Below, piece after piece: positions 1 to 24,474 of a stretch of DNA of 25,076 bases. The notes beneath the pieces were generated by a model that was given only the letters and a program-made list of their open reading frames with translations, was not told where the DNA came from and ran no database searches. This stretch comes from a virus (taxonomy: Duplodnaviria; Caudoviricetes): positions 1 to 25,076 of IMG/VR virus record IMGVR_UViG_3300049629_000033, one strand, 5' to 3'. A program made the position numbers and the translations under genes. How positions within the stretch are numbered: the stretch's first letter is position 1; each line of letters opens with the position of its first letter.

Positions 1-552
1 ATCCCAAAGAGGAATGTCAACAATGTGGACTGCACATTGAGGATACTCTTTGTCAAACTCTGCCTTGCTTGCCTGCCAGTCACGGAGAATGGCGACGATC
101 TGACCTTTCTTTACTTCATATCCATAGCTTCTCCAGAGCATGGCGTTGAGGTTGATCTGCGCCTCCCATTCGGACTTGCCTCCGAGCAGGAAGGAGAAGA
201 CCGATGTTACCTTGAAGTCGGAGATAGTCTTGTTGCCAGTCTCGTAGAGGTCAGTCTGTCCGGTCAGCGTCCAGTCATTGATCTCCAAGTAGAGACGCTT
301 TTCAGTCAGCTCTTCCTCTCCTCCAGCTAATTCAAGAACCTTGTGAACTGACTGACCGAGCAATGCCCACACCATATCGGATGCGTCTTCCACGATCTCG
401 TCGGAGTAGCGTTTCTTGAGTTGGCTGATCTTCGGTGGCCCGATCAAGGTAGTCACCGAGATGTCTGCCTTCTTCGTTCCGGGTGTATACCCATCGTGCG
501 CCAACGCCCGATACATGGGGGCTGGCAGGTTGAAGTTATTTGTGATGGTCAT
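1..552 (-). CDS. PD-(D/E)xK (RecB/Cas4-like) phage exonuclease, 3'-truncated by the window edge
   Basis: Not in the ORF track; translated manually. ATG at 552 overlaps the upstream TGA (ATGA) and the frame stays open for 184 codons: MTITNNFNLP...ISVTTLIGPP...LLGQSVHKVLE...EKRL...LTGQTDLY...ISDFKVTS...EAQINLNAML. The G-x3-H, E, G-x-x-D, D-x-K and Q motifs are in the order typical of PDDEXK_1 nucleases. Confidence 0.85.
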   Translation of the reverse strand, partial: MTITNNFNLPAPMYRALAHDGYTPGTKKADISVTTLIGPPKISQLKKRYSDEIVEDASDMVWALLGQSVHKVLELAGGEEELTEKRLYLEINDWTLTGQTDLYETGNKTISDFKVTSVFSFLLGGKSEWEAQINLNAMLWRSYGYEVKKGQIVAILRDWQASKAEFDKEYPQCAVHIVDIPLWD

Positions 553-797
553 TTCTCGAAGCAGTTAGCAAGCAGTTCAGATACTCCGCGAAGATGGTCG
601 CCTTGTTTGACCACTGCTTGTGCGTTGGGAAGATTGCCTAGAAGGAATCGTCCGTCTGCTGCCGCCGATGAGACCAAGCGGAGAAAAATCTCACGCTGAA
701 GATCGATGTTCTGAACTGCTGTTTTTTCTACTGCTTCTACTTTTACTTTTGGTGTTTCTTTCATTGGTTTTATATGGACAGGGTTGTTGTTGTCCAC
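549..797 (-). CDS. hypothetical protein, probable first gene of an early operon
   Basis: 82-aa ORF with GTG start 7 nt after a -10 box; its stop overlaps the nuclease ATG. An internal ATG (MKETPK) is an alternative start. Confidence 0.65.
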   Translation of the reverse strand: MDNNNPVHIKPMKETPKVKVEAVEKTAVQNIDLQREIFLRLVSSAAADGRFLLGNLPNAQAVVKQGDHLRGVSELLANCFEK

Positions 798-804
798 TTC
801 GCAA

Positions 805-832
805 AGCCTATCATTCTACCGATAATCGTCAA
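805..832 (-). promoter_or_regulatory. sigma70-type promoter for the early operon
   Basis: Minus strand: TTGACG (832-827), 16-nt spacer, TAGGCT (810-805) with an extended TGn, and an AT-rich upstream tract at 833-861. Confidence 0.7.
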
Positions 833-861: not shown

Positions 862-877
862 TTATCGTTTCCGATAA
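862..877. promoter_or_regulatory. 16-bp palindrome TTATCG-TTTC-CGATAA (copy 1 of 10)
   Basis: Perfect 6-bp arms; lies between the terminator and the early promoter. Confidence 0.8.
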
Positions 878-912
878 TAAGAAAACGCACCCCAGATTTC
901 TCCGAGGTGCGT
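878..912 (-). terminator. intrinsic (Rho-independent) terminator
   Basis: Minus strand ACGCACCTCGGA-GAAA-TCTGGGGTGCGT followed by TTTCTT: 12-bp stem with two G-U pairs, a GNRA loop and a U-rich tail. Confidence 0.85.
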
Positions 913-955
913 CAACCTTATGAATAACACGAATAGCAATCAGAGACCCGACTGC
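878..955 (-). ncRNA. candidate small regulatory RNA (~75 nt)
   Basis: Has its own promoter (963-990), a 5' hairpin GCAGTCGG-GTCT-CTGATTGC (955-936), a 23-nt unpaired linker and a terminator hairpin. The G-U pairs are valid only on the minus strand. Confidence 0.6.
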
Positions 956-962
956 GAAGCAG

Positions 963-990
963 AGGTTACATCACATGGCTGAGAAGTCAA
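963..990 (-). promoter_or_regulatory. sigma70-type promoter overlapping the end of the giant gene
   Basis: TTGACT (990-985), 16-nt spacer, TAACCT (968-963). Same geometry as the 805-832 promoter, with a G located 7 nt downstream (955). Confidence 0.65.
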
Positions 991-3900
991 GTTCCATGTT
1001 TTGTTCCAAATCCTTCCTAGCTTCCGATCTAATCTTCCCTATCTCGTCGTTAAGCAACTCTTGACTTACCTCTTGAGGTGTCAGTCCCTTCTCTTCTTGC
1101 GCTTCAGTAGGCGTTGGATTCTTTAAGCTATCTTCGTTCTCTACAATCCAGTCGCGCATCCTCGGCCCTGCGGTTCGGATGAACTCAAGCTCTTGAGATT
1201 TTGTCATGCGCTTACCATCAGACCACTTGAGGCTATTGTCCCAAGAAGGAGGCGTAAGATTAAGATCATACATGATTTTAAATCCGGGGTCAGGAGTTTC
1301 GGACGATGCCAATCTTCCAATTATACTTGCAAGCCTGCGCCCAACCCCATTCTCTTCTACCAAGGATGGGTATCTAGCTGGATCGCCGAAGTAGTTCACA
1401 TCTTTATTCAAGAAGTTAATTGCCCCCGGCATTTCTTTAAGAAGGTTACTTGCCCATGTGCTTCCAACTGCTCGCTGATCAGTTGTTAGTTTTGTTATGT
1501 CACGAAGTTGACCGGGAACAAGCAATCGTCCAATGATCCCGCTCATAATTCCTTGGCCTTCTTTTACTGGGTCTTTGGCTTGTGTAAGTCCGAATATGTC
1601 TGCCAATCCAGTAAGGAATGACTGGTTCAATACAGATGTAAAAACAAGGGTTGGTGCGGCAACCGCTATGCTTGCCAACACCTCGCTCTTATCAATCTCG
1701 GTTAGAGATTTTTGTTTCTTCCTAACTGCTTGCACTTCTTCAGAAACTAACGCTGACATTGAAAGAGGAATAACCAGAGGAGTTCCTAGAAGTGAAATGT
1801 ATTTGTCTCCAATTCTGACAGAGTATTTGATTCCACCATTCTGCGCCCAGATGCGATTCTGCTTCGGATCACGCGGCCCTTCGGCATAGAATTGGATTGC
1901 TGGTCTTTTCTCTGGGTCTTCCTCGTCTCCACTTTGGAATGCTTGAGTTAATGCCGCAGCGGCAAAAGTAAGAAATCCAATACCGCCCTTGATTAGTAAT
2001 TCATATTCCTTCTCTGATCTTCCTCCGGTAAATGGATCGTTCACTCCGTTTCTTCTAGCTTGAACATATTTAATTTGAGAAAGGCCGGGAGTGTAATTGA
2101 TAAACTCATTAGTTACGTTCGCCACAACATTTGTAAATGGGATAAAAAACTTAATTCCTGCATAATCTGCAAGTAGACCATTAACAAAATTCGCAACTCT
2201 TCCAACTATACCTTGGGGAGCTTGGCCATATACTGTTTCCAAGGCATCTTGCTCGACTTGCTTGATATCAACCTTGGCCTTCGCTGCTCTTTGATCGCGG
2301 TAGATTTCATTGGCCCTAATTACAATCTCCTGCTCCTTCTGCTTTCCTGTAGTTTTTGATGATACAAGCTCTAACTCTGCTTGCCTTCTAGCTATTTCAT
2401 ATCCTTCTTTGGAATATGGAGATGCTCCCGCCTGCGCGAGCTTCGCTTCAAATGCAACCTCTTTTAGGAAAGCATCCGTAGCACGAAGCGATCTCATCAA
2501 TGATCTTGGACTAACAGCTTTCAGTCCTGCATTCACAAAGCTAGGAAGGAAGTTGATCCTTCCATCACCGAATGTTGTTAAGAAACTAACAATCTTTCCA
2601 GCGTTCTCTGGCTTTGCGTTCTCGATGACATTCATCTTCGGATACTTGCCTCTGCGCTCGTCATCCATTCCAGATGGATTTAATCCAAATCTCATCACAT
2701 ACAGGAATGAATTCACGGCTGGTGTATTCTTTCCCATCATCGCATTGAATAACCCTTGCAGCATTGGGATTGCGGTCTTTGGACTGTATGTTGACCATAC
2801 CGCAACGTTTGAGAGCAGGTTCATTGCCCCAGAAAATATGTTTAATGATGGGGTTGCAAGCTGTGATAGGAGGCTCCAATACCAGTAGCTGGATAGGATA
2901 TCCCCACTAGTAAACTTACTCTTCTCAAGTAAAGCTCTGCCCATCTTCTCTTCTTCGATGCTTCGGATCACACCCTCTGGGAGCAGGCTGATTCTGTCAC
3001 CCCATTGACGGATCGTGTTTACGAATTCAGCATCGTATGGCAGATAGTTCTTATCAAAGTCATGGGTCTGGCGGAATGCCTCGTAGACCATCTCGGAGTC
3101 TAGCATTCCCATGTTTGCCATCTGGATCAGACGCTGTAGCAATGTCCTCTGGTTAGTGTTCCTCTTGATCTTGTTGTTAGTTAAGACTTCTTCAGCCTTC
3201 TTCAAGGCGGTTGTCAGGTTCTCGCTCCGCTGGGCGATGAGTGCCTTATCCATCTCCGACGAGATCAAGTCTGCTAGTTCAGTCGCATTCTCCTTGGACA
3301 TTCCAATCTCTGTGATGATCCTGCTGATCAATCCTTCCTTGAAGTTACCTTCGTCGGTCAGGGATAGCTTGGTGATGTCCTTCAAATTCTTGATGTTCTT
3401 GAACTGCGCCTCGGCTTCCTCTTTAATCTTCTTACTCATCAGAGGCTTTGGAGTTACCTTGCCAGTCTCTTCGTTGACTGTGAATCCTAGCTTCTCTGTC
3501 AGAATCCTGTTGGTTTCTTGGTTGAGATAGGCATCTGCATCTGCAATAAACTTATCGATCAGTTCGTTTGATGCGCCAGTTCCGCGAAGCTCTGCGCGGA
3601 TATGCTCACGCACTCCAGCTTGGGCGGCGTTCCTCTTCTCTCCAAGGTATTGGAATAGATCAGCGAACTTGTAGTTGATAGCGTCAGTAGCGTCCTTGAT
3701 TGCTTGAGTTCTCAAGCTGTCCGACCATTCGTTTGAACGGAGGGATTTGAAGAGGTCGGCGAAGTCTTTATTGAATGCTTCCTTGCTCTGATACTTCTCT
3801 GCCATCCGGTTGGATAGGTCGGCCAAGAATGCCTTGTAAGCATTATCGTTTCCGATAACCGCCTTCACCATCTCCAAGTATTTCCCGCTCCGCTTTCCTG

Positions 3901-6900
3901 CCTTCTGCTTGGGAACTCCAGCCATCTGGACTCCCATCTGCTTCGCTGCGGCAGCGAAGGATTGATACATGAAGTTGCTGACATTCTCAATCGAGAAGCC
4001 CTTCCTGTTCATCCCAATCGCAAGGATGTTCTGAACAGTCTGGTCAACGATCATGTTGGCATACTTGTCTTCCTTGGTATCGAAGAGTCCCGCACTGAAA
4101 TCCAGTAGGATTTTGCGGGTGCTTTCATTCTTTCTCTTGCCAACCTCGGCGCGGATGGATTGGCGCACCTTCTCTGGATTCAGTTGGGATTGCTTAATGA
4201 GTGAGACTGCTTTGCGGAATACACTCTGTATGTTAGCTACTTTATCTACTGACTTCCTGCGGTCGCCTCGGATTGCATTTGCGATGTTTTCAAATGGAAC
4301 TTTAGTCAGGGCATAGATGTTGCCCATCGCATCAATGATGCTGGACTTGTAGCTGTCAATCGCAGTTCCTGCGCTGCCAATACCCCTCAATGTTCCAGCG
4401 TATCTTGTTATTCTTCCACCCGATGCATTCATCATTACAACCTTCCTAGCAAGGTCGGCTTGCACCTTTCTTGCTTGAAGTCTGAATGATTCCCGCGCCG
4501 AATTAGGCATAGATGATTCGTTTACTTGATCAATAAATACAGGCATCAAATCATACATGACTTTTGCCAGAACATATTGCTCCTCTAAATCTATGCTGTA
4601 TCTATTTTTAACTCTGCCATAATCAATATCTGAAACTCCCTCTGCAATACTAAAGAAGTCTGCATCTGGATTTCCTCTGGTGATTTTATTCAGAGCATTA
4701 ACTCCATCAGTAAACGCATCCGATGTGAAAAGATTCGCGGCAACAGAGTAAGGTGAGATCAAGGATTTCGGATAGGTCTTGCCCTTCTGGATCGTCCTCG
4801 ATTTGTATTCGGTCAATGCCTTGCTACGCTTCGGCTTCAGAGTTTCAACCAATGCATCAAGATCGGATATCATCTGATTGCTGATCCGCTTCATTGCAGA
4901 TTCAGACTTCTTGGACATTGGTTCACCTTCTGGAGTTACGCCTGCTCTTGCAATCAAGGGAGACTCTGGGCTAAAGCGTTCTGAAATAGGAATGACTTTT
5001 CCCCTGCTGGTGAAGGTAGCGAGGTCTGCTGACTTGGCTTGGTTTGGATTGAACACTACTGCAACGCTATCTGCCCCGTCCCATTGGTATACTCCATCGT
5101 AGCCAGCGTCTTGCATTGCTTTGACGAACTTCGCCCCATCATCAATCCCGCCAGTAGACATTACTGATCCCCAATCACCTTCATCTTCTATGAATTGTTC
5201 AGCGTATTGAGGAAATGCTTTAGACAAAACTCTGATTATATCAGGTGAGTTGGCGGGATTATCCATCTTGATGTAGGCGGTGAATATCTTCCCTCCTCTT
5301 TCAAGATAATCCATCGCGTGTTCTTTTGTTTCCGCAAAGAATGATCCAACATCACCGCCCGCTGATTTAAAATCTTTAGATGCCGCTTTAAACATTGGCG
5401 GCTTCCAACTTCCCTTCCATAAATGTCCAACCTGTCTTAATCTTTGAAAGATTAACGAGCGAATTTTGGATGCACTTTTGGGATTGTTATTTGCCCAAGT
5501 TTCTTGGTTTGTCTTTGGTGTGATCGTGTCGTTTCCCGTATCTCCCTTGATTGCTTGAGCGTATTCAACATCCATCTGTGGAGTTACACCAGCCTCTGCA
5601 ATGATTCCAGATTGGCCCGGAAGTCTTTTAACAGCAGGTTGCCCCATAGAAAACAAACGTATCTGTTTGTTTCTTTTTAGAGTTGCAAGTCTTCTGTATT
5701 TGTCAGTCTGACGTATTAGTTGAGCGGCTTGCTCTGGGTTGTCAGCAGTGGCTTGAATCATTTCTTCCCTACGATTTTCTCCATACTTGTTGAATATTTC
5801 AAATATCTCGTAGTATGGCTGGGCCTTCGCTTCGATTGCTGGAGTTATCGTTTCCGATACTTCTGGTTCAACTGTCAAGGATTCCTTAACAGTTGGGGTA
5901 GCTTCTTTTGTAGTATAAATGAATTTCCCATCTCCTGTTTCAATAAATCCATTTTTACGATAGAACTCATCAGGATTTTTTCCTATTCCATCAATGTCTT
6001 CAGATTTTAATACTATTGATTTGGAATATTTTGCCGCCAACGCTTTAACATCGTTTATTACTGATGAACCAGTTCCTTTTCCACGAACATTTTCTGGAAC
6101 TCTAATTATTGTTATTTCTATATTTTGTTCAGATGGGAATAATATTAATTCAACGCCAGATTTCTCCCACTTATTTTCAAGTTTATTAACATCTTCGCCA
6201 TATTCTCCAAACTTCAAATTTTCTTCTTGGCGTTTTTGTTTTGAAGCATTTTTTCTTTCTTCAATAAACCTTTCATCTTCAGTTGAAATAGGTTTCAGTT
6301 CACCTTTAGGTTGAGCGGCAGAGTAATCTTTAAACTCGTAGTTAGCCTCACCCTTCACGATGCCATACTCATCCAAGATGGTATTCATCGTGTTCAGCAT
6401 CTTCTCTACTTCCTTGGTCGAGGTTCCTTTTCCAAGGTAGCGAGCGATGGAAGTGCGGAGGAACTGGAGAGCATTGAGGAGTGAGTCCTTCCATGCTCTG
6501 ATTATTCCCTTGTCTTTATCAGAGAATGTTTCTCTCTCCGCTGCTCTGATAGCATTCAAGTCCTCGGTGATCTGCCCCGTCCTTACTCGCTGGGCAACCA
6601 TCCGCATGAACTCTTGGGAGAAAGTAAGATCATCAAGGAGTTTTGTTTTATCGTTCAAGTAGACTTCAGATACCCCCGGCAGTGCGTTAGGATTCGTGCG
6701 CTTTACTTCTTTTGCTATGTCAGAGATTCGCTTTACGATGTATTCCTGCTCTGTGAGTTTAGGTTTCTTGAGAGCCTTATACTCGTCTTGGATGCCTTGG
6801 AACATGGAGAGATGGATCATCTCCTCTTCTAGTTTCTTGGCTGCTGCCCGTGACTCTTGATCCAATGCAGCGTCTCTACTTGCAGCCCGTTGTTCACCTT

Positions 6901-9430
6901 GGGTCGCTACTTGCTGGAGGACGTTTACATCTGGGATAACCAGATACTTCTTACCTCCAAAGAAAACTGCCTTGTATGTTCCACTATCAGCGGAGAGTTT
7001 ATTCCCAGTCAGCTTATTGTATTCCTCGGAGGATATAACTTGAGTGCCTGTGCCTGCCAAGAATCCAGCATTATTAGATACTGCTGTTCGGATAGCGTTC
7101 TTCAGCTTCTGCGCCCGTTTCCCTGTAGCTTGAATCTTTCCAATCACCTTGTCTGTAGCAGACATGAAGGCTTGGAGGACTGGGCGGTCTGGATAGAAGG
7201 TTCCGAATGGTGATCTGCGTCCAGACTCTGGTAGTCCCGGCTGACGGGTAGGAGTTGTGCCTTGCGGATCGATTCCCTGTTCAATAGCTGTAAGTTCAGC
7301 GATCTTATTCTGCTCCGCGAAGATGGCTTGGTTTACCCTATCGATACCTGCTTGATCGTTCTCATCCAAAGCGTCGAACTCTTTGTTGAGTTCTTCGATC
7401 TTGGCTTGAGCTTCTTCTTTTGTAGCGGATGGCTTTACTTCTCCAGCCGCTGGTGCTTCCTTAACCTCTGCTGGGCCTGCGGAGAGCTTATCGAATTGGG
7501 TCTGTAATTGCGCGAGGTTGGCTTTCTTTTCGTTCAGTGCTAGTTCGGCGGCTTGGTATGCTGGCGCGGTCTTTTCAATCGCCTGTAGCCCCATCTCATC
7601 GTCAGCAATCTCTTGCTTCAGATTGTCAATCTCACCGCTAACAGCAGTCATCTGCTGGGCTAGGTCAGATACTGCATCTGGAGCTAACTGGTCAGCAACT
7701 GCATCAGCCTTGGATTCGATATCGGTTTCTTCCGATCCCTCTTCATCTCCCTTCAAGGCTTTGTTCTTTGCTTTCTTTCCAGAAATCATCTGGGTGAAGA
7801 TGGATGTAAGAATACCTGCCGCTCCACCTACCCCACCAGCGTATGCAGTCCCTTCAAAGATGTCTTGGTTGGGATCGTAGACATACTTCTTAACGAGGTT
7901 GCCTGCGATCTGCTGTGGCATTTCGTTGAACAATGCTTCTTCAGTTCCTTCGATTACAGCTTGAGCGGCCCTGTTCAGACCTCTGTAGATTGCCTCTTGT
8001 TGTTTGGGATCAAATCGACTGATCCACTTTTGCAGTGGTGATACAAGTTCCAATGGTGCTTGAGTTAGAGCAGAGAAGAGTGCCGCTTGATTCGCTTGCT
8101 CTTCAGTAGCTCCATCTGATTTCGCTTCAGAGTATCCTGCCCACGCAGAGTTAAGTCCACCAAATGTAAGTGTAGTTCCCTTCTGGAAAAGATTGATCGC
8201 CCTCGCAGAGTTCAATCCGAGCGATAAACGTGCGGCGTTTCCGAGCGCACCAACAGTAACTGCGGCTCCAGTGAAACCAATTCCGCCAGATACATCCCTT
8301 CCGAATTGCGCCAACGCACCAACCTTTCTTGGGTCTTGGCCTTTCAGTCTCATTTGGTCTGCATATTCAGCGGCATCGATTAGCGATTGCCCAGACTGCT
8401 CAAATCCAGCTTCCTTTAGAAGCATACCAATCGGGCCAATAGTTCCAGACCCAACTGCTCCAGCGTATCCATCCCATGCTCGCTTGAAGATATCCGTAGC
8501 GGTATCCATGAAGTCGGGCGAGGTCATTGCCCATTCCTCCGCGAGCTTCCTTACATCGACATTCCTCTTGAGTTCTTCGATTCTTGCTGGTGCTTCTTCT
8601 GCTCCAAGATACTGACCAGCCATCCGCGACATCATGCCCGGAGTGTCGATTCCCTTGGTCTTTAGGTAGTCCAAGAATTTATCGTTTCCGATAATGTTAT
8701 CTATGAACTCGCGCTGATCACCGATAACCTCTGCCGCCGCGAAAGTCCTTGTTCGGATTGGAACAGTTGTTATCTCTCCTTTTCCTCCACCTTCTCCAAG
8801 TCCAGTCTCTACATCTACAGAAACTCCCTTCTTTCCGGTAATCAATCTACTCAAGAAATCTAATTGATTAGCCTCATGTGCCTGTTGAGTTTCTTGCAGC
8901 TTGGATATTTCTGATCGCAATGGCAGAGCCTTATCACGATACTCGTATAATGGAAGTTTCGTTGCTTCAGATAGTTCTTTATATTTTTGCTTGATCAGGT
9001 TCCCACGGAAGTCCAGCGTCATCCCATCTGGGCTGATAGGTTCTTGGATTGTCTTTCCTAAGATATCAATCGCTTGAGCGCGGCGAACCTCTACAGGCTT
9101 ACCCTCCTCATCTTCCATGAAGGTTTTGGTTTGCCCCGGCTCCATATCCAATACATCTGGGCCACCGACCATAGGCTCTCCGCCTACAGGAAGACCTCCA
9201 GAGAGGTTGATCATCTCTGGGACTCGCTTAATTTTTTTGAAAACCTCTTGCTCGGAAATTACTGTAGCTTGTGGACTAGTTGTATAATATTCCGCGATCT
9301 GATCTAACTTATATCCAGATTTTAATGCTTCACCGATTTTTGGATTCTGCTCCGATAAAAGAGAAGATATTTGATCATCAGTATATCTAGCCTCTCTTGC
9401 TTTTTTGAGTGTATCAAGAGTTAATATCAT
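971..9430 (-). CDS. giant internal virion/ejection protein (polyvalent protein with metallopeptidase-like, GNAT and ART-like modules)
   Basis: 2819 aa and the last gene of the virion module. Features: N-terminal AREARYTDDQI...LKSGYKLDQI; a hydrophobic G/A-rich segment; a coiled coil; EEEMIH...QEF; GNAT motifs RGKGTGS and FYRKNGF; ART-PolyVal-like GSFFA..A..Y..YIKMDNP...GYDGV...VVFNPNQAKSA; and a C-terminal FIPFTN...YSVRIGDKYIS region resembling LPD38-type ejection protein tails. Confidence 0.85.
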   Translation of the reverse strand: MILTLDTLKKAREARYTDDQISSLLSEQNPKIGEALKSGYKLDQIAEYYTTSPQATVISEQEVFKKIKRVPEMINLSGGLPVGGEPMVGGPDVLDMEPGQTKTFMEDEEGKPVEVRRAQAIDILGKTIQEPISPDGMTLDFRGNLIKQKYKELSEATKLPLYEYRDKALPLRSEISKLQETQQAHEANQLDFLSRLITGKKGVSVDVETGLGEGGGKGEITTVPIRTRTFAAAEVIGDQREFIDNIIGNDKFLDYLKTKGIDTPGMMSRMAGQYLGAEEAPARIEELKRNVDVRKLAEEWAMTSPDFMDTATDIFKRAWDGYAGAVGSGTIGPIGMLLKEAGFEQSGQSLIDAAEYADQMRLKGQDPRKVGALAQFGRDVSGGIGFTGAAVTVGALGNAARLSLGLNSARAINLFQKGTTLTFGGLNSAWAGYSEAKSDGATEEQANQAALFSALTQAPLELVSPLQKWISRFDPKQQEAIYRGLNRAAQAVIEGTEEALFNEMPQQIAGNLVKKYVYDPNQDIFEGTAYAGGVGGAAGILTSIFTQMISGKKAKNKALKGDEEGSEETDIESKADAVADQLAPDAVSDLAQQMTAVSGEIDNLKQEIADDEMGLQAIEKTAPAYQAAELALNEKKANLAQLQTQFDKLSAGPAEVKEAPAAGEVKPSATKEEAQAKIEELNKEFDALDENDQAGIDRVNQAIFAEQNKIAELTAIEQGIDPQGTTPTRQPGLPESGRRSPFGTFYPDRPVLQAFMSATDKVIGKIQATGKRAQKLKNAIRTAVSNNAGFLAGTGTQVISSEEYNKLTGNKLSADSGTYKAVFFGGKKYLVIPDVNVLQQVATQGEQRAASRDAALDQESRAAAKKLEEEMIHLSMFQGIQDEYKALKKPKLTEQEYIVKRISDIAKEVKRTNPNALPGVSEVYLNDKTKLLDDLTFSQEFMRMVAQRVRTGQITEDLNAIRAAERETFSDKDKGIIRAWKDSLLNALQFLRTSIARYLGKGTSTKEVEKMLNTMNTILDEYGIVKGEANYEFKDYSAAQPKGELKPISTEDERFIEERKNASKQKRQEENLKFGEYGEDVNKLENKWEKSGVELILFPSEQNIEITIIRVPENVRGKGTGSSVINDVKALAAKYSKSIVLKSEDIDGIGKNPDEFYRKNGFIETGDGKFIYTTKEATPTVKESLTVEPEVSETITPAIEAKAQPYYEIFEIFNKYGENRREEMIQATADNPEQAAQLIRQTDKYRRLATLKRNKQIRLFSMGQPAVKRLPGQSGIIAEAGVTPQMDVEYAQAIKGDTGNDTITPKTNQETWANNNPKSASKIRSLIFQRLRQVGHLWKGSWKPPMFKAASKDFKSAGGDVGSFFAETKEHAMDYLERGGKIFTAYIKMDNPANSPDIIRVLSKAFPQYAEQFIEDEGDWGSVMSTGGIDDGAKFVKAMQDAGYDGVYQWDGADSVAVVFNPNQAKSADLATFTSRGKVIPISERFSPESPLIARAGVTPEGEPMSKKSESAMKRISNQMISDLDALVETLKPKRSKALTEYKSRTIQKGKTYPKSLISPYSVAANLFTSDAFTDGVNALNKITRGNPDADFFSIAEGVSDIDYGRVKNRYSIDLEEQYVLAKVMYDLMPVFIDQVNESSMPNSARESFRLQARKVQADLARKVVMMNASGGRITRYAGTLRGIGSAGTAIDSYKSSIIDAMGNIYALTKVPFENIANAIRGDRRKSVDKVANIQSVFRKAVSLIKQSQLNPEKVRQSIRAEVGKRKNESTRKILLDFSAGLFDTKEDKYANMIVDQTVQNILAIGMNRKGFSIENVSNFMYQSFAAAAKQMGVQMAGVPKQKAGKRSGKYLEMVKAVIGNDNAYKAFLADLSNRMAEKYQSKEAFNKDFADLFKSLRSNEWSDSLRTQAIKDATDAINYKFADLFQYLGEKRNAAQAGVREHIRAELRGTGASNELIDKFIADADAYLNQETNRILTEKLGFTVNEETGKVTPKPLMSKKIKEEAEAQFKNIKNLKDITKLSLTDEGNFKEGLISRIITEIGMSKENATELADLISSEMDKALIAQRSENLTTALKKAEEVLTNNKIKRNTNQRTLLQRLIQMANMGMLDSEMVYEAFRQTHDFDKNYLPYDAEFVNTIRQWGDRISLLPEGVIRSIEEEKMGRALLEKSKFTSGDILSSYWYWSLLSQLATPSLNIFSGAMNLLSNVAVWSTYSPKTAIPMLQGLFNAMMGKNTPAVNSFLYVMRFGLNPSGMDDERRGKYPKMNVIENAKPENAGKIVSFLTTFGDGRINFLPSFVNAGLKAVSPRSLMRSLRATDAFLKEVAFEAKLAQAGASPYSKEGYEIARRQAELELVSSKTTGKQKEQEIVIRANEIYRDQRAAKAKVDIKQVEQDALETVYGQAPQGIVGRVANFVNGLLADYAGIKFFIPFTNVVANVTNEFINYTPGLSQIKYVQARRNGVNDPFTGGRSEKEYELLIKGGIGFLTFAAAALTQAFQSGDEEDPEKRPAIQFYAEGPRDPKQNRIWAQNGGIKYSVRIGDKYISLLGTPLVIPLSMSALVSEEVQAVRKKQKSLTEIDKSEVLASIAVAAPTLVFTSVLNQSFLTGLADIFGLTQAKDPVKEGQGIMSGIIGRLLVPGQLRDITKLTTDQRAVGSTWASNLLKEMPGAINFLNKDVNYFGDPARYPSLVEENGVGRRLASIIGRLASSETPDPGFKIMYDLNLTPPSWDNSLKWSDGKRMTKSQELEFIRTAGPRMRDWIVENEDSLKNPTPTEAQEEKGLTPQEVSQELLNDEIGKIRSEARKDLEQNMELDFSAM
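3843..3858. repeat. palindrome copy, TTATCGTTTCCGATAA (intragenic)
   Basis: Identical to copy 1; encodes VIGNDN on the minus strand. Confidence 0.8.
5845..5860. repeat. palindrome copy, TTATCGTTTCCGATAC (intragenic)
   Basis: 15/16 match to copy 1; read in a different codon phase (VSETIT). Confidence 0.75.
5869..5895. repeat. 27-bp inverted repeat CAACTGTCAAGGA-T-TCCTTAACAGTTG
   Basis: 13-bp arms with 12/13 complementarity. Confidence 0.7.
8679..8694. repeat. palindrome copy, TTATCGTTTCCGATAA (intragenic)
   Basis: Identical to copy 1; encodes IIGNDK. Confidence 0.8.
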
Positions 9431-13306: not shown

Positions 13307-13322
13307 TTATCGTTTCCGATAA
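13307..13322. promoter_or_regulatory. palindrome copy, TTATCGTTTCCGATAA (gene junction)
   Basis: Abuts the upstream TAA (13325-13323) and lies 5 nt before the ATG at 13301. Confidence 0.8.
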
Positions 13323-14042: not shown

Positions 14043-16049
14043 TTAGTTCACGATATTGTAGTTCCAATATTTCTCTTGGCAACACAAAAATGGTTCGCAC
14101 TCTTGATTTTCTTCTGGGCAGTCACCAACCGGAGAATCATCGTTGTTCTTGATGTTCGCCATCAACCTTACTCGGTCAACTGTAGCTGCTCCGGTTAGGT
14201 TGATTCTGATTTGGAATTCTGATCCTTCCACCGCTGGGATGCCTGCCAAGTCATTGCACTCGCTTGGGTCTGGCGTGTTAAACTTGTAGCGTTTGTAACG
14301 ATTACCTCCACGTTGTGGGAAGCATTCAGTTACTTTAGGCGAGCATGGATCGCACCCGAATGTCGTAGGAACTTTCAGTTCTGACCAACATGGATTACTA
14401 TCTGCGCGGAACTCGGCTGAACTATTTACTTCACCCTTAATCTCACTCATCCACATTTCGCCACCAGTAATCTTTTTGCGGAGGAACTTGTTGGTAGCCC
14501 CGCTTCGGTTGAAGTCATACCTTCCAGTTGTGAAGAAGGATTCAATCTGCCTGCTTCCATTTGGGCCGTAGTCATCGCCTTGGGCTATGGTGAATTCGTA
14601 TAGGCGGTTCTTGTTGTCTTTGTCAAACGAGAATCCAAATCCGCGTTTCTCGCCTTGGATCAATGCAGTTAGTAATTGAGTTGGTCTGATGCCTGTCCAT
14701 ACTCCATTCCAACGGAAATCAAGTTGTGCGTCAGGGGCTGGTCTTGAGGATTGGTCTAGGTCAAGAACTACCATGCCCCTATGATACCTGTTCAGTCCCT
14801 CTACTCCTTCTGCTCGGTAGGTCTGTGGAGAGACAGTATTGATGAGGTAGTTGTTGAAAAAGATAGTAGAAGCGAATTGCTTCATCCACGGAGTATCATT
14901 TGATACCCACTTGTTCACGTCCCTAGATAGTTTACGTAGGGAGAAGTATCTATTGAACTCGGACTGGGTATTGGAATAGAACGCCCAGCCATCGTGCGAG
15001 CGGAACCAAAGCTCACTATTAACTAGAGCTAGATACGGGCTAGTGCATCCGCGCCCAAGGAGTGAGATGCGCTGGATGTTTGATGTGTTCCATTGTGACC
15101 TTGGTAGAGAGACATCCATTGAGAATGCTCCGTTTCCTGTAAGGACTACTAGCTGACCTTGGCCGCGAAGGTTGTATCCCAACTCTGGCATCGCCTTCAT
15201 CCCTGTGATATTCCCCATCATGGCTGGAGTCGAGAACGCGCCGCCTTCTGCCCAGTATCCTATCTCCGTGAAGTTCTCTGTATTCTTGGTATCGGTGAAC
15301 CCGCCACCATAGATGATGTCAGAAGCGTAGATTTGATTGAACCTATCAGAAACAAAGACTCGACCGAAGGCATACTCCATGATCGTTCCAATCGGCATCT
15401 TTGCCAAGTATGGATTCAGTCGGTAGGCAGGTAGCTTGACTGTCCCTGTTCCGGTTCCCCTTTGGGTATCTGTGATGACTGCCGTAAACTTAACGCCAAT
15501 CGTATTGGATGGTGCGCCGATCAAAGTGAAGTTGGTAGTTCCAACTGATACAATCTCGCAGTAGTCTCCATTTTGGATTTCGCTTGCAGTCAACGTTCCT
15601 AATACTCCATCCCATGCGATTGCATTCTGGTAGCCGTTTTGGATATACGCTCGATCTTCAGCTTGCACGAACCATGTGTGCATCATGCCCGGATCGTTGC
15701 CCTCGATAATCTTGTAGGCAAACGCCCGATTGTTTACCATCTTCAGAAAGTAGATAATCCCAGATACCGATAGCAGGATGCCATCGTTTGTTCTCAAGTT
15801 GGTTGAACGATATGGATACGCACCTTGGAAGCTACCACCAAGAATATCGTTAACGATAGTCTCGGCTTCTCCGTCTCCAGCGATAATCGGGATGTTACGA
15901 ATGCTTGGTCTTGTCCGGTTAATGCCGCCTCGGAATGTCCTATTAACCGACTCTGATACTACAGACTCTGGTAAATACGATGGATGAGTATCTGCGTCTT
16001 GCGCGATGATACTTGTAAATCCATCAAAGACTGATCCTTCTGCTGGCAT
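14043..16049 (-). CDS. probable tail nozzle / DNA stabilization protein (beta-propeller type)
   Basis: 668 aa, beta-rich, with YAFGRVFVS...IYASD, ITGM and GRGCTSPY...ELWFRSHDG patterns resembling P22 gp10/T7 gp12-like nozzles; Cys-rich C-terminus. Confidence 0.65.
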   Translation of the reverse strand: MPAEGSVFDGFTSIIAQDADTHPSYLPESVVSESVNRTFRGGINRTRPSIRNIPIIAGDGEAETIVNDILGGSFQGAYPYRSTNLRTNDGILLSVSGIIYFLKMVNNRAFAYKIIEGNDPGMMHTWFVQAEDRAYIQNGYQNAIAWDGVLGTLTASEIQNGDYCEIVSVGTTNFTLIGAPSNTIGVKFTAVITDTQRGTGTGTVKLPAYRLNPYLAKMPIGTIMEYAFGRVFVSDRFNQIYASDIIYGGGFTDTKNTENFTEIGYWAEGGAFSTPAMMGNITGMKAMPELGYNLRGQGQLVVLTGNGAFSMDVSLPRSQWNTSNIQRISLLGRGCTSPYLALVNSELWFRSHDGWAFYSNTQSEFNRYFSLRKLSRDVNKWVSNDTPWMKQFASTIFFNNYLINTVSPQTYRAEGVEGLNRYHRGMVVLDLDQSSRPAPDAQLDFRWNGVWTGIRPTQLLTALIQGEKRGFGFSFDKDNKNRLYEFTIAQGDDYGPNGSRQIESFFTTGRYDFNRSGATNKFLRKKITGGEMWMSEIKGEVNSSAEFRADSNPCWSELKVPTTFGCDPCSPKVTECFPQRGGNRYKRYKFNTPDPSECNDLAGIPAVEGSEFQIRINLTGAATVDRVRLMANIKNNDDSPVGDCPEENQECEPFLCCQEKYWNYNIVN
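15844..15859. repeat. palindrome variant, ATATCGTTAACGATAG (intragenic)
   Basis: 14-bp perfect core TATCGTTAACGATA; encodes TIVNDI. Confidence 0.65.
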
Positions 16050-16864
16050 TAGGCGTTGACACTCTTGATTACGATAAAGCGCAATGTCAGTGCTTCAGAC
16101 AAACTTCCTCCCGTGATATTGCGGATTACGATGTTAGCATTGCCTGCCGCTGGAGCTACCGCAAAGTTGTATGCGCCAAGCGTTCCACCAGAGATGTGAC
16201 TTACCACAACGATGTCCGTAGCCTCAATAACCGAATTGCTCAAGTTAAAGGTAACGGCAGTAGCGGACGCGAGGGCGGCGTTATCGGTTACGATAATTCC
16301 AGTAGGACGATTCAGCGTAACAGAGTTTGTCTTTGCTCCTGCTCCTTGCGTGATCGTCCCACCTGCGCCAGTATTGTATCCAATCTTGGATGCGTTACCA
16401 TTAGCAAGAATCGTGCTGCTTGAAGTAATCGCAGCGGTAGATGTTGCTCCGCTCACACTCAATGATCCAGTAGATGTAGCACCAGAAACATTCAGCGACG
16501 ATGCTGTAATAGCAAGCGTTGGAGAAAGTGAACCTACAGTCAATGCTCCGGTAGTAGTCAATGGTTGGCTACCAAGATCAACTGGGCCTGCTTGCAGAAC
16601 GCTATTTAGCGTAGCAAACTCTACAAGACCCGTTGAATCTTTTCTCAATACAGTTCCGCTCGCTCCGTTTGTCCAAGTCAAATTACCAGCACCATCAGTC
16701 TTCAAGACTTGTTGGGCAACTGGAGTCTGAATTGTTTTCTGACAAGCAGCAGAGTCTTCTACTACCAATCGTTTCCCATTGGCAGTTGTTTCGAGTGGCT
16801 CACACAACAACGGATATTCCGTGTCGCATGGTGGGCAGGGTGTGCAAGGTGTGCAGAGGCTCAT
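16049..16864 (-). CDS. fibre-like structural protein with Cys-rich N-terminus
   Basis: 271 aa: starts MSLCTPCTPCPPC, has a tandem SLxVSGATST repeat, and ends in a GYxTGAGGTITQ...VTLN...FxLxNSxI domain common in phage structural proteins. Confidence 0.65.
   Translation of the reverse strand: MSLCTPCTPCPPCDTEYPLLCEPLETTANGKRLVVEDSAACQKTIQTPVAQQVLKTDGAGNLTWTNGASGTVLRKDSTGLVEFATLNSVLQAGPVDLGSQPLTTTGALTVGSLSPTLAITASSLNVSGATSTGSLSVSGATSTAAITSSSTILANGNASKIGYNTGAGGTITQGAGAKTNSVTLNRPTGIIVTDNAALASATAVTFNLSNSVIEATDIVVVSHISGGTLGAYNFAVAPAAGNANIVIRNITGGSLSEALTLRFIVIKSVNA
16281..16296. repeat. palindrome copy, TTATCGGTTACGATAA (intragenic)
   Basis: Perfect arms; identical to the copy at 24459. Confidence 0.75.
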
Positions 16865-20541: not shown

Positions 20542-20557
20542 TTATCGTTAACGATAG
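20542..20557. promoter_or_regulatory. palindrome variant, TTATCGTTAACGATAG (gene junction)
   Basis: 5 nt before the ATG at 20536; a TTGACA lies at 20573-20568 on the minus strand. Confidence 0.75.
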
Positions 20558-24169: not shown

Positions 24170-24185
24170 TTATCGTTTACGATAA
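24170..24185. promoter_or_regulatory. palindrome copy, TTATCGTTTACGATAA (gene junction)
   Basis: Abuts the upstream TAA (24188-24186); 5 nt before the ATG at 24164. Confidence 0.8.
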
Positions 24186-24458: not shown

Positions 24459-24474
24459 TTATCGGTTACGATAA
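24459..24474. promoter_or_regulatory. palindrome copy, TTATCGGTTACGATAA (gene junction)
   Basis: Abuts the upstream TAA (24477-24475); 6 nt before the ATG at 24452. Confidence 0.8.

Follow-up and report, generated by a model that had tools for sequence, protein, structure and literature searches.

The gap downstream of the giant gene of this phage holds a unit running from promoter to terminator that represents a real, conserved and undescribed family of predicted small RNAs (sRNAs). We regard it as probable that the RNA, of about 75 nt, base-pairs across the start codon in many early and replication mRNAs of the phage itself, likely repressing their translation. Comparison of related phage sequences established that the predicted anatomy is conserved, which strand it belongs to, that the seed is exposed, and that this seed is complementary to early start codons and not to late ones.

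The window, i.e. the whole phage record of 25,076 bases that was analysed, carries all its large ORFs on the minus strand. Read along this strand, tail and structural genes lead to the giant gene, followed by a short gap, a small ORF and the exonuclease gene; the RNA unit sits in this gap. In relatives, the exonuclease gene is followed by the genes of an SSB-like protein and of a putative regulator of 320 aa, both of them predicted targets. Since the exonuclease operon has a separate promoter, the unit upstream of it is self-contained; its terminator would close the late operon too. The features are collected in Table 1.

Table 1. Features of the predicted sRNA unit and its surroundings, given as positions in the window.
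Feature	Positions	Strand	Remarks
-35 box (TTGACT), predicted promoter of the sRNA	985-990	-	within the last codons of the giant gene
-10 box TAACCT	963-968	-	16 nt from the -35 hexamer
5' hairpin P1	936-955	-	8 bp, 2 G-U; from folding
U/G-rich single-stranded linker (seed)	914-935	-	pairing core 930-917; CAU opposite AUG is 922-920
Intrinsic terminator	876-913	-	13-bp stem 913-884, GAAA loop, then U-rich tail
TATCG-N4-CGATA palindrome	863-876		directly past the terminator; probably not part of the RNA
Giant gene, 2819 aa	971-9430	-	ART-PolyVal domain; ends the structural block (context)
Early operon, first ORF (71 aa)	549-764	-	ATG 764; longest frame from GTG 797 (context)
Exonuclease gene	1-552	-	truncated by the contig end (context)
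Promoter of the downstream exonuclease operon	805-832	-	TTGACG 832-827, TAGGCT 810-805

Residues 1355-1470 of the giant gene (971-9430) encode an ART-PolyVal ADP-ribosyltransferase domain. Among relatives this gene differs strongly in length (about 1800-2800 aa) and in its C-terminus, and the adjoining RNA unit is retained. Four loci (L005, L016, L040 and L046) carry additional ORFs between RNA unit and exonuclease, with the RNA staying at the giant-gene end. Elsewhere in the window, the segment 17001-20000 has a low GC content (0.31-0.38 vs about 0.46) and spans two pectate-lyase-like tail-spike genes, which suggests a swapped receptor-binding module.

Folding confirmed the hairpin, the linker and the GNRA-capped terminator at the minus-strand positions where the original prediction had put them. 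The same prediction had the promoter lying within the final codons of the giant gene, which is true of the -35 box but not of the -10 box, as the latter lies 3' of the stop codon (973-971). Seven nucleotides separate the -10 box (968-963) from the hairpin at 955, and the predicted transcript would start at about 956-955. The non-Watson-Crick pairs, described as four G-U pairs on the minus strand, include no A-C pair, but number five if the basal pair G913-U884 is counted (four without it). The segment 878-960 folds with -35.3 kcal/mol on the minus strand (z -5.4; none of 200 shuffles as good) and with -16.3 kcal/mol on the plus strand (z -2.2; 8 of 200 shuffles as good). A generic sigma-70 scan misses the sRNA promoter, yet this promoter is conserved across relatives. 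Scanning the window with the Rfam covariance models, including C4, gave no match at the gathering threshold; the best sub-threshold score, 23.5 bits against a threshold of 114, fell on the terminator hairpin.

Conservation was evaluated on 54 sequences, consisting of 52 viral loci retrieved via the exonuclease, one MAG contig and the window. The full pattern of promoter, hairpin, linker and terminator was found in 52 of these 54 syntenic sequences, making up 35 distinct RNAs of 71-87 nt, i.e. with a predicted promoter and intrinsic terminator of its own in an intergenic position, as for a trans-encoded sRNA. The two sequences without the pattern are a contig beginning inside the exonuclease gene and an outsider of 41% identity. 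For all 35 distinct RNAs the sense strand folds better, and the seed has a mean unpaired probability of 0.81 (minimum 0.68).

In the 44 loci aligned by synteny, TTGAC of the -35 box and UUC-x-U of the linker are invariant, and each linker carries one to three UUC(A/G)U repeats. With the shortest-match pattern, every one of the 52 matching loci has a 16-nt promoter spacer. The -10 box fits the family pattern TAnnnT, most commonly as TAGATT, TAATCT or TAGTCT. Relative to the giant gene, the -35 box falls within the coding region in 15 of 51 loci, overlaps the stop codon in 16 and lies beyond it in 20. That this placement shifts with a fixed spacing to the -10 box and the hairpin argues for selection on the promoter and not on protein coding. 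The 5' hairpin begins 6-8 nt past the -10 box in every allele folded, its sequence being very different among alleles. Structural covariation, proposed as a check of the original prediction, was found in the terminator stem, where all 13 positions are paired in 21 of 21 distinct alleles, with changes on both sides, 50 G-U pairs and no A-C pair. These comparisons favour a self-contained, structured minus-strand RNA.

The early operons are headed by promoters of the same type as that of the unit. A pattern scan of metagenomes gave 41 matches, 38 of them with the promoter too; the pattern matches in L266 (a metagenome contig of 317 kb) and L255 came without promoter and were treated as chance. 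Contigs assembled from RNA runs at the locus represent relatives that are 80-97% alike, some spanning both unit ends, with transcript ends and strand not visible in them; the RNA runs X1-X4 contained 0.04 of the words. A blastn search for distant matches in GenBank phages returned none, tblastn in named phages returned no match for the capsid-like, terminase and 320-aa proteins, and the exonuclease matches there were of 28-43% only. The sole match in the genome collection is a 51.8-kb contig (L101) in a Woesearchaeota MAG, with 84% exonuclease identity and the full RNA unit. We took this contig to be, probably, a mis-binned phage, and did not count it as evidence of the host.

The linker was originally said to lack a perfect target elsewhere in the window, and this was confirmed: the best ungapped match is 15/23, and the longest AUG-anchored helix at the 22 sense-strand ATG starts has 8 bp. 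Because the window holds almost only late genes and no target, 14 related records were examined whole or nearly whole. They are made up of a structural block, the exonuclease operon, a replication operon and, on the opposite strand, an operon of small genes whose final gene encodes a helicase, the labels 'early' and 'late' being inferred from gene content and shared promoter type. A start was counted as matched when the phage's own RNA gave an unbroken helix of at least 9 bp over the AUG with at most one G-U pair.

By this rule 84 of 453 early and replication starts were matched in the 14 genomes, compared with 5 of 372 late starts and 69 of 3959 internal in-frame AUGs. The matches comprise 29/97 starts of the exonuclease operon, 24/112 of the small-gene operon and 31/244 of the remaining opposite-strand and replication genes. 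After shuffling with UC(A/G)U kept, the means were 3.5, 5.4 and 10.7 for these early classes and 7.7 for the late class; none of 200 shuffles reached the early counts, a statistic which, like the others here, overstates independence since the genomes are close kin with about 3-4 linker types. Seven held-out genomes were analysed afterwards under the same helix rule, with operon classes assigned in nearly the same way, and gave 29/216 early and replication starts (10/48, 8/55 and 11/113 for the three classes in the above order), 0/174 late starts and 30/1938 internal AUGs. No start was matched in the partial held-out genome G033.

Late genes have fewer Lys/Asn second codons anyway; the contrast persists within AUG-R-R starts alone, where 77/308 early, 5/146 late and 52/1333 internal AUGs were matched, or, counted by gene family, 29/81 early vs 4/45 late (p=0.001). 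Perfect runs of at least 9 nt occur at 50/453 early starts vs 1/372 late starts, and at 0-2% of starts in three unrelated phages. Few own matches were seen in G012, G030 and G036, with one perfect run each. Start regions make up about 2% of the sequence, yet 37 of the 150 best genome-wide linker sites fall on them, compared with 2-11 for shuffles. An in-register score of at least 20 was reached by 98 of 1011 starts vs 123 of 4269 in-frame internal AUGs, with CAT-keeping shuffles at a mean of 42 and a maximum of 66 starts. When mean scores were compared genome by genome with those of CAT-keeping shuffles, just 3 of 15 genomes were significant (p<0.05). Starts and internal AUGs could not be told apart by plain RNAduplex energies, a less strict test in which the starts were better in 4 of 15 genomes.

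The claim of a trans-acting antisense RNA directed at start codons thus holds for its complementarity, which to own early and replication starts is far above the shuffled, internal-AUG, late-gene and unrelated-phage controls. A single register, in which the whole linker mirrors CAACCTT-ATG-AATAAC, was too narrow a description. Instead, one or two UUC(A/G)U sites of the linker pair with many starts via wobble-tolerant helices of 9-14 bp. The conserved unpaired seed is complementary to initiation regions of distant genes, as expected of a trans-encoded sRNA. These helices are short, and about one fifth of the early genes are covered. A Shine-Dalgarno-like motif is present at only 6-14% of the starts per class.

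Separately, within the small-gene block on the opposite strand, 14 start regions contain the motif AACACGAA (14 relatives; e.g. G002, G007 and G036; boundaries loose), which is present in no late gene. It complements UUCGUGUU of the linker upstream of the AUG, and the two may form a possible second pairing register.

Some targets recur. The start of the SSB-like gene was matched in 11 of 14 genomes, that of the gene for the 320-aa putative regulator in 7 of 14, and those of DnaB and of the first gene of the replication operon in 8 of 13 each. With the first gene of the replication operon, the window's own linker forms a helix of 14 bp, including one G-U, over the AUG in 10 of 13 relatives; with the SSB-like start it reaches at least 9 bp in 11 of 13. 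Invariant U's of the linker can pair with either A or G, so one seed can serve Met-Asn-Asn, Met-Ser-Asn and Met-Asp-Asn starts; this service to A- and G-variant starts also explains why the invariant U's have not been 'improved' to C.

The SSB-like protein (270 aa, L063:76-897:+; A4) is unannotated. Its N-terminal OB fold is closest to archaeal SSB/RPA domains, with matches to bacterial SSB/RPA domains as well, followed by extra helical domains and an acidic C-terminal tip; the SSB assignment is based on these domain matches and the acidic tip. For the 320-aa protein there is a weak match to the LmbU regulator family below the cut-off and a ParB/DUF1016-like lead from the Atlas.

The 320-aa protein is also a candidate binder of the palindrome TATCG-N4-CGATA, which probably is a dispersed DNA site for a phage protein. 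Ten copies were found in the window (863-876, 3844-3857, 5846-5859, 8680-8693, 13308-13321, 15845-15858, 16282-16295, 20543-20556, 24171-24184 and 24460-24473), where 0.06 are expected, and 16, 24 and 31 copies in three relatives. Some sites immediately precede late genes (several cases), others are located within coding regions, and one adjoins the sRNA terminator, there in either orientation.

Covariation of seed and target was evaluated by comparing own with permuted RNA-target pairs. None of 5000 permutations was as good for the 320-aa gene (main clade p=0.010) or for the SSB-like gene (main clade p=0.0004); DnaB gave p=0.013 overall and p=0.36 in the main clade, and the first ORF gave no covariation (p=0.08; main clade 0.55). 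The covariation is thus significant for three of four gene families overall and for two of four within the main clade, with few independent lineages. In a second clade both the leaders and the linker have changed to an ACAC-AUG style, and the RNAs of this clade have a fit of 0.26 on their own clade's starts vs 0.07 on those of the main clade. A search for further members of the second clade found none beyond those known, and an exact search with the window's linker in viral contigs gave no match. In part, then, linker and start appear to vary together across lineages for three targets.

Two narrower proposals were dropped. A single-target model with the first replication-operon gene fits the main clade well, the seed match being absent in the second clade; we keep this gene as one predicted target, not as the sole one. 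Covariation of the G025 linker with the same gene was wrong, the linker fitting the SSB-like gene of G025 instead (12 bp).

The partial covariation bears on the reading in which the same antisense RNA has host mRNAs with A/C-rich, Shine-Dalgarno-less AUG-AA starts as its main targets, the phage genes copying the start style of the host. The degenerate seed and the early-type promoter, fitting host takeover, would agree with it, as would AUG-A being a general bacterial preference (PMC5850271, available portion) and phage sRNAs such as PreS/LPR1, which act on host mRNAs in the descriptions available. We consider it unlikely, since linker and phage-gene starts appear to vary together between phage lineages, late genes, necessarily highly translated, avoid the match, and an unintended early hit on the SSB and helicase genes of the phage itself would come at a cost.

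The protein encoded by the first replication-operon gene (L061:3351-3719:-; A2) is conserved at 122-131 aa with 237 homologues, and its model, a confident one (pLDDT 87), consists of a helix, six strands and a helix. Searches of Pfam, PHROG, NCBIfam, PDB and BFVD gave no match at E<=0.001, and the Atlas no informative one. Codons 5-10 of the gene are hypervariable, with 29 variants of the first 10 codons. The 5' hairpin of the RNA at times complements codons 4-9 of this gene, in several cases those of the phage's own allele (8-9 nt), and two hairpin alleles are perfect 12-nt complements of its 5' coding end in other phages, with none among 864 other starts. Own vs permuted pairing of the hairpin with the replication-operon allele gave p=0.078, and whole-duplex energy p=0.016. 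These A/C-rich genomes contain matches of 11-15 nt at numerous sites. We treat the hairpin pairing as a lead.

Upstream of this operon, in L061:3351-4114 (G011) and 12 other relatives, overlapping back-to-back -35 boxes serve a gene of an HTH_3 regulator and the divergent replication operon (initiator, DnaB). The -10 box lies 8 nt from the ATG of both the HTH_3 gene and the first replication-operon gene, so these mRNAs would be near-leaderless. The arrangement resembles a lambda-type switch; no integrase was seen among the 69 scanned proteins.

Such a divergent arrangement would suit an immunity or superinfection-exclusion RNA that is produced in quiescent or co-infected cells and silences early genes of incoming relatives as well as of the resident, the variable 5' hairpin adding allele-specific reach. 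The 12-nt complements of the two hairpin alleles and substantial cross-pairing within the clade (0.088 vs 0.135 own) would fit this, and P1 C4, STnc6030 and sas, as far as the consulted descriptions go, are precedents. Against it, own pairs still outscore cross pairs, 11-15-nt matches are common, and the 69 proteins scanned in two relatives include no integrase; we judge this role to be quite improbable.

CAU is the initiator anticodon, and the linker could in principle be a decoy or sponge, within a real RNA, for a protein or nuclease recognising the UUC(A/G)U repeats or an initiator-tRNA-like CAU. The one to three repeats per linker would agree with this, but CAU is not in a 7-nt loop closed by an anticodon-type stem (in 35 folds it lies in the open linker or in weak, non-conserved helices), the bases 3' of CAU vary among alleles, and both the early-vs-late contrast and the covariation with flanking target bases would be left unexplained, making a decoy very unlikely.

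The plus strand of the window has an ORF of 20 codons at 920, and the original prediction named this ORF, if it were the conserved and translated element, as the alternative to an RNA. Its length varies between 5 and 107 aa, with 5 aa in 11 of 52 loci, and none of 50 loci has an opposite-strand promoter of the family type within 300 nt. The alternative is therefore unsupported, and the unit also differs from cis-antisense or type I toxin-antitoxin loci, in which a conserved opposite ORF and its promoter are expected. That there is no separate RNA at all, and the locus is a late-operon 3' UTR and terminator with DNA-level motifs or a functional plus-strand mini-ORF, we hold to be highly improbable: it is true that the structural block ends at the terminator, with a DNA palindrome beside it, but the promoter boxes and their spacing are retained inside, over or past the stop codon, the hairpin always starts at the predicted +1, and the plus-strand ORF has the variable length and lack of promoter just described.

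Returning to an RNA that pairs with the phage's own early starts, we compared the unit with known systems. P22 sar is a phage small antisense RNA acting on the phage's own gene expression, and P1/P7 C4 sits in an immI-like operon upstream of icd and the antirepressor, its target. The neighbours of the present unit are the giant virion gene and the exonuclease operon, and no antirepressor was matched among the 69 proteins of two relatives. With C4 (P1/P7 immI), sar and lambda OOP the unit has in common that they are phage-encoded small antisense RNAs acting on the phage's own expression. However, these three act on one neighbouring or overlapping transcript, whereas here many predicted starts, 1-20 kb away and in three operons, would be reached by a short degenerate seed. 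In the available parts of the respective sources, C4 regulates ant (PMC8201110) and OOP acts on the cII-O mRNA (bioRxiv 2024.10.31.621285).

The predicted logic is that of T4 RegA, replication genes included; RegA is described, in the accessible part of PMC3014915, as binding over the AUG of about 30 mRNAs of the early and middle classes, whose starts are A/U-rich and unstructured. RegA is a protein of 122 aa, whereas the agent here would be a base-pairing RNA: the element is non-coding on the folding strand and has no conserved ORF on the other strand, making this a functional analogy and not family membership. PreS/LPR1 of lambda (bioRxiv 2024.10.31.621285), VpdS of VP882 (PMC12197685) and SviR of PLE (bioRxiv 2022.04.08.487710) are, in the available parts of these sources, likewise structured sRNAs; their seed is unpaired and they have several targets, but they act mainly on genes of the host or of another element. 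Mirroring the start-codon style of the phage's own early genes is not described for them in those parts, the comparison being by description and Rfam only. Our literature search found no paper on the RNA unit or on a multi-start-codon mode. The supplementary files searched from PMC10690425, the largest screen for structured phage RNAs, gave no match to the unit; alignments of that study may list the RNA without a function.

The proposed mechanism is as follows. Host polymerase would transcribe the RNA from the promoter type common to early operons, and the two end hairpins would stabilise it, allowing it to accumulate. The seed would then pair at AUG-R-R-U-AAC, CUA-AUG-AA, AAC-AUG-AAA or ACAC-AUG-AAA starts, and pairing over the AUG would block initiation on mRNAs that mostly lack a Shine-Dalgarno sequence. 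As a likely result, synthesis of SSB, the helicase, the regulator and small early proteins would be capped after a delay, with the structural genes spared. Since the promoter is of the early type, this timing is a tentative part of the prediction. Transcripts of the late operon that stop at this terminator would contain the seed as well, which could strengthen the change from early to late expression.

It is likely, going by the predicted pairing, that one small RNA damps the translation of early and replication genes together. More speculatively, the RNA might be an 'RNA RegA' that co-evolves with the whole start style of early and replication genes, is boosted late by transcripts ending in the same seed, silences co-infecting kin, which share the style, and has its allele specificity tuned by the hairpin, a broader picture that we put forward as tentative.

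What is known of how phages that lack a known repressor or nuclease shut down early translation comes mostly from proteins (T4 RegA and RegB) and from single-target antisense RNAs. If true, the present RNA would be a compact switch at the level of a regulon, suited to hosts with little use of Shine-Dalgarno sequences. With more than 40 natural alleles and their paired targets, reporter tests of the seed with compensatory changes can be designed directly.
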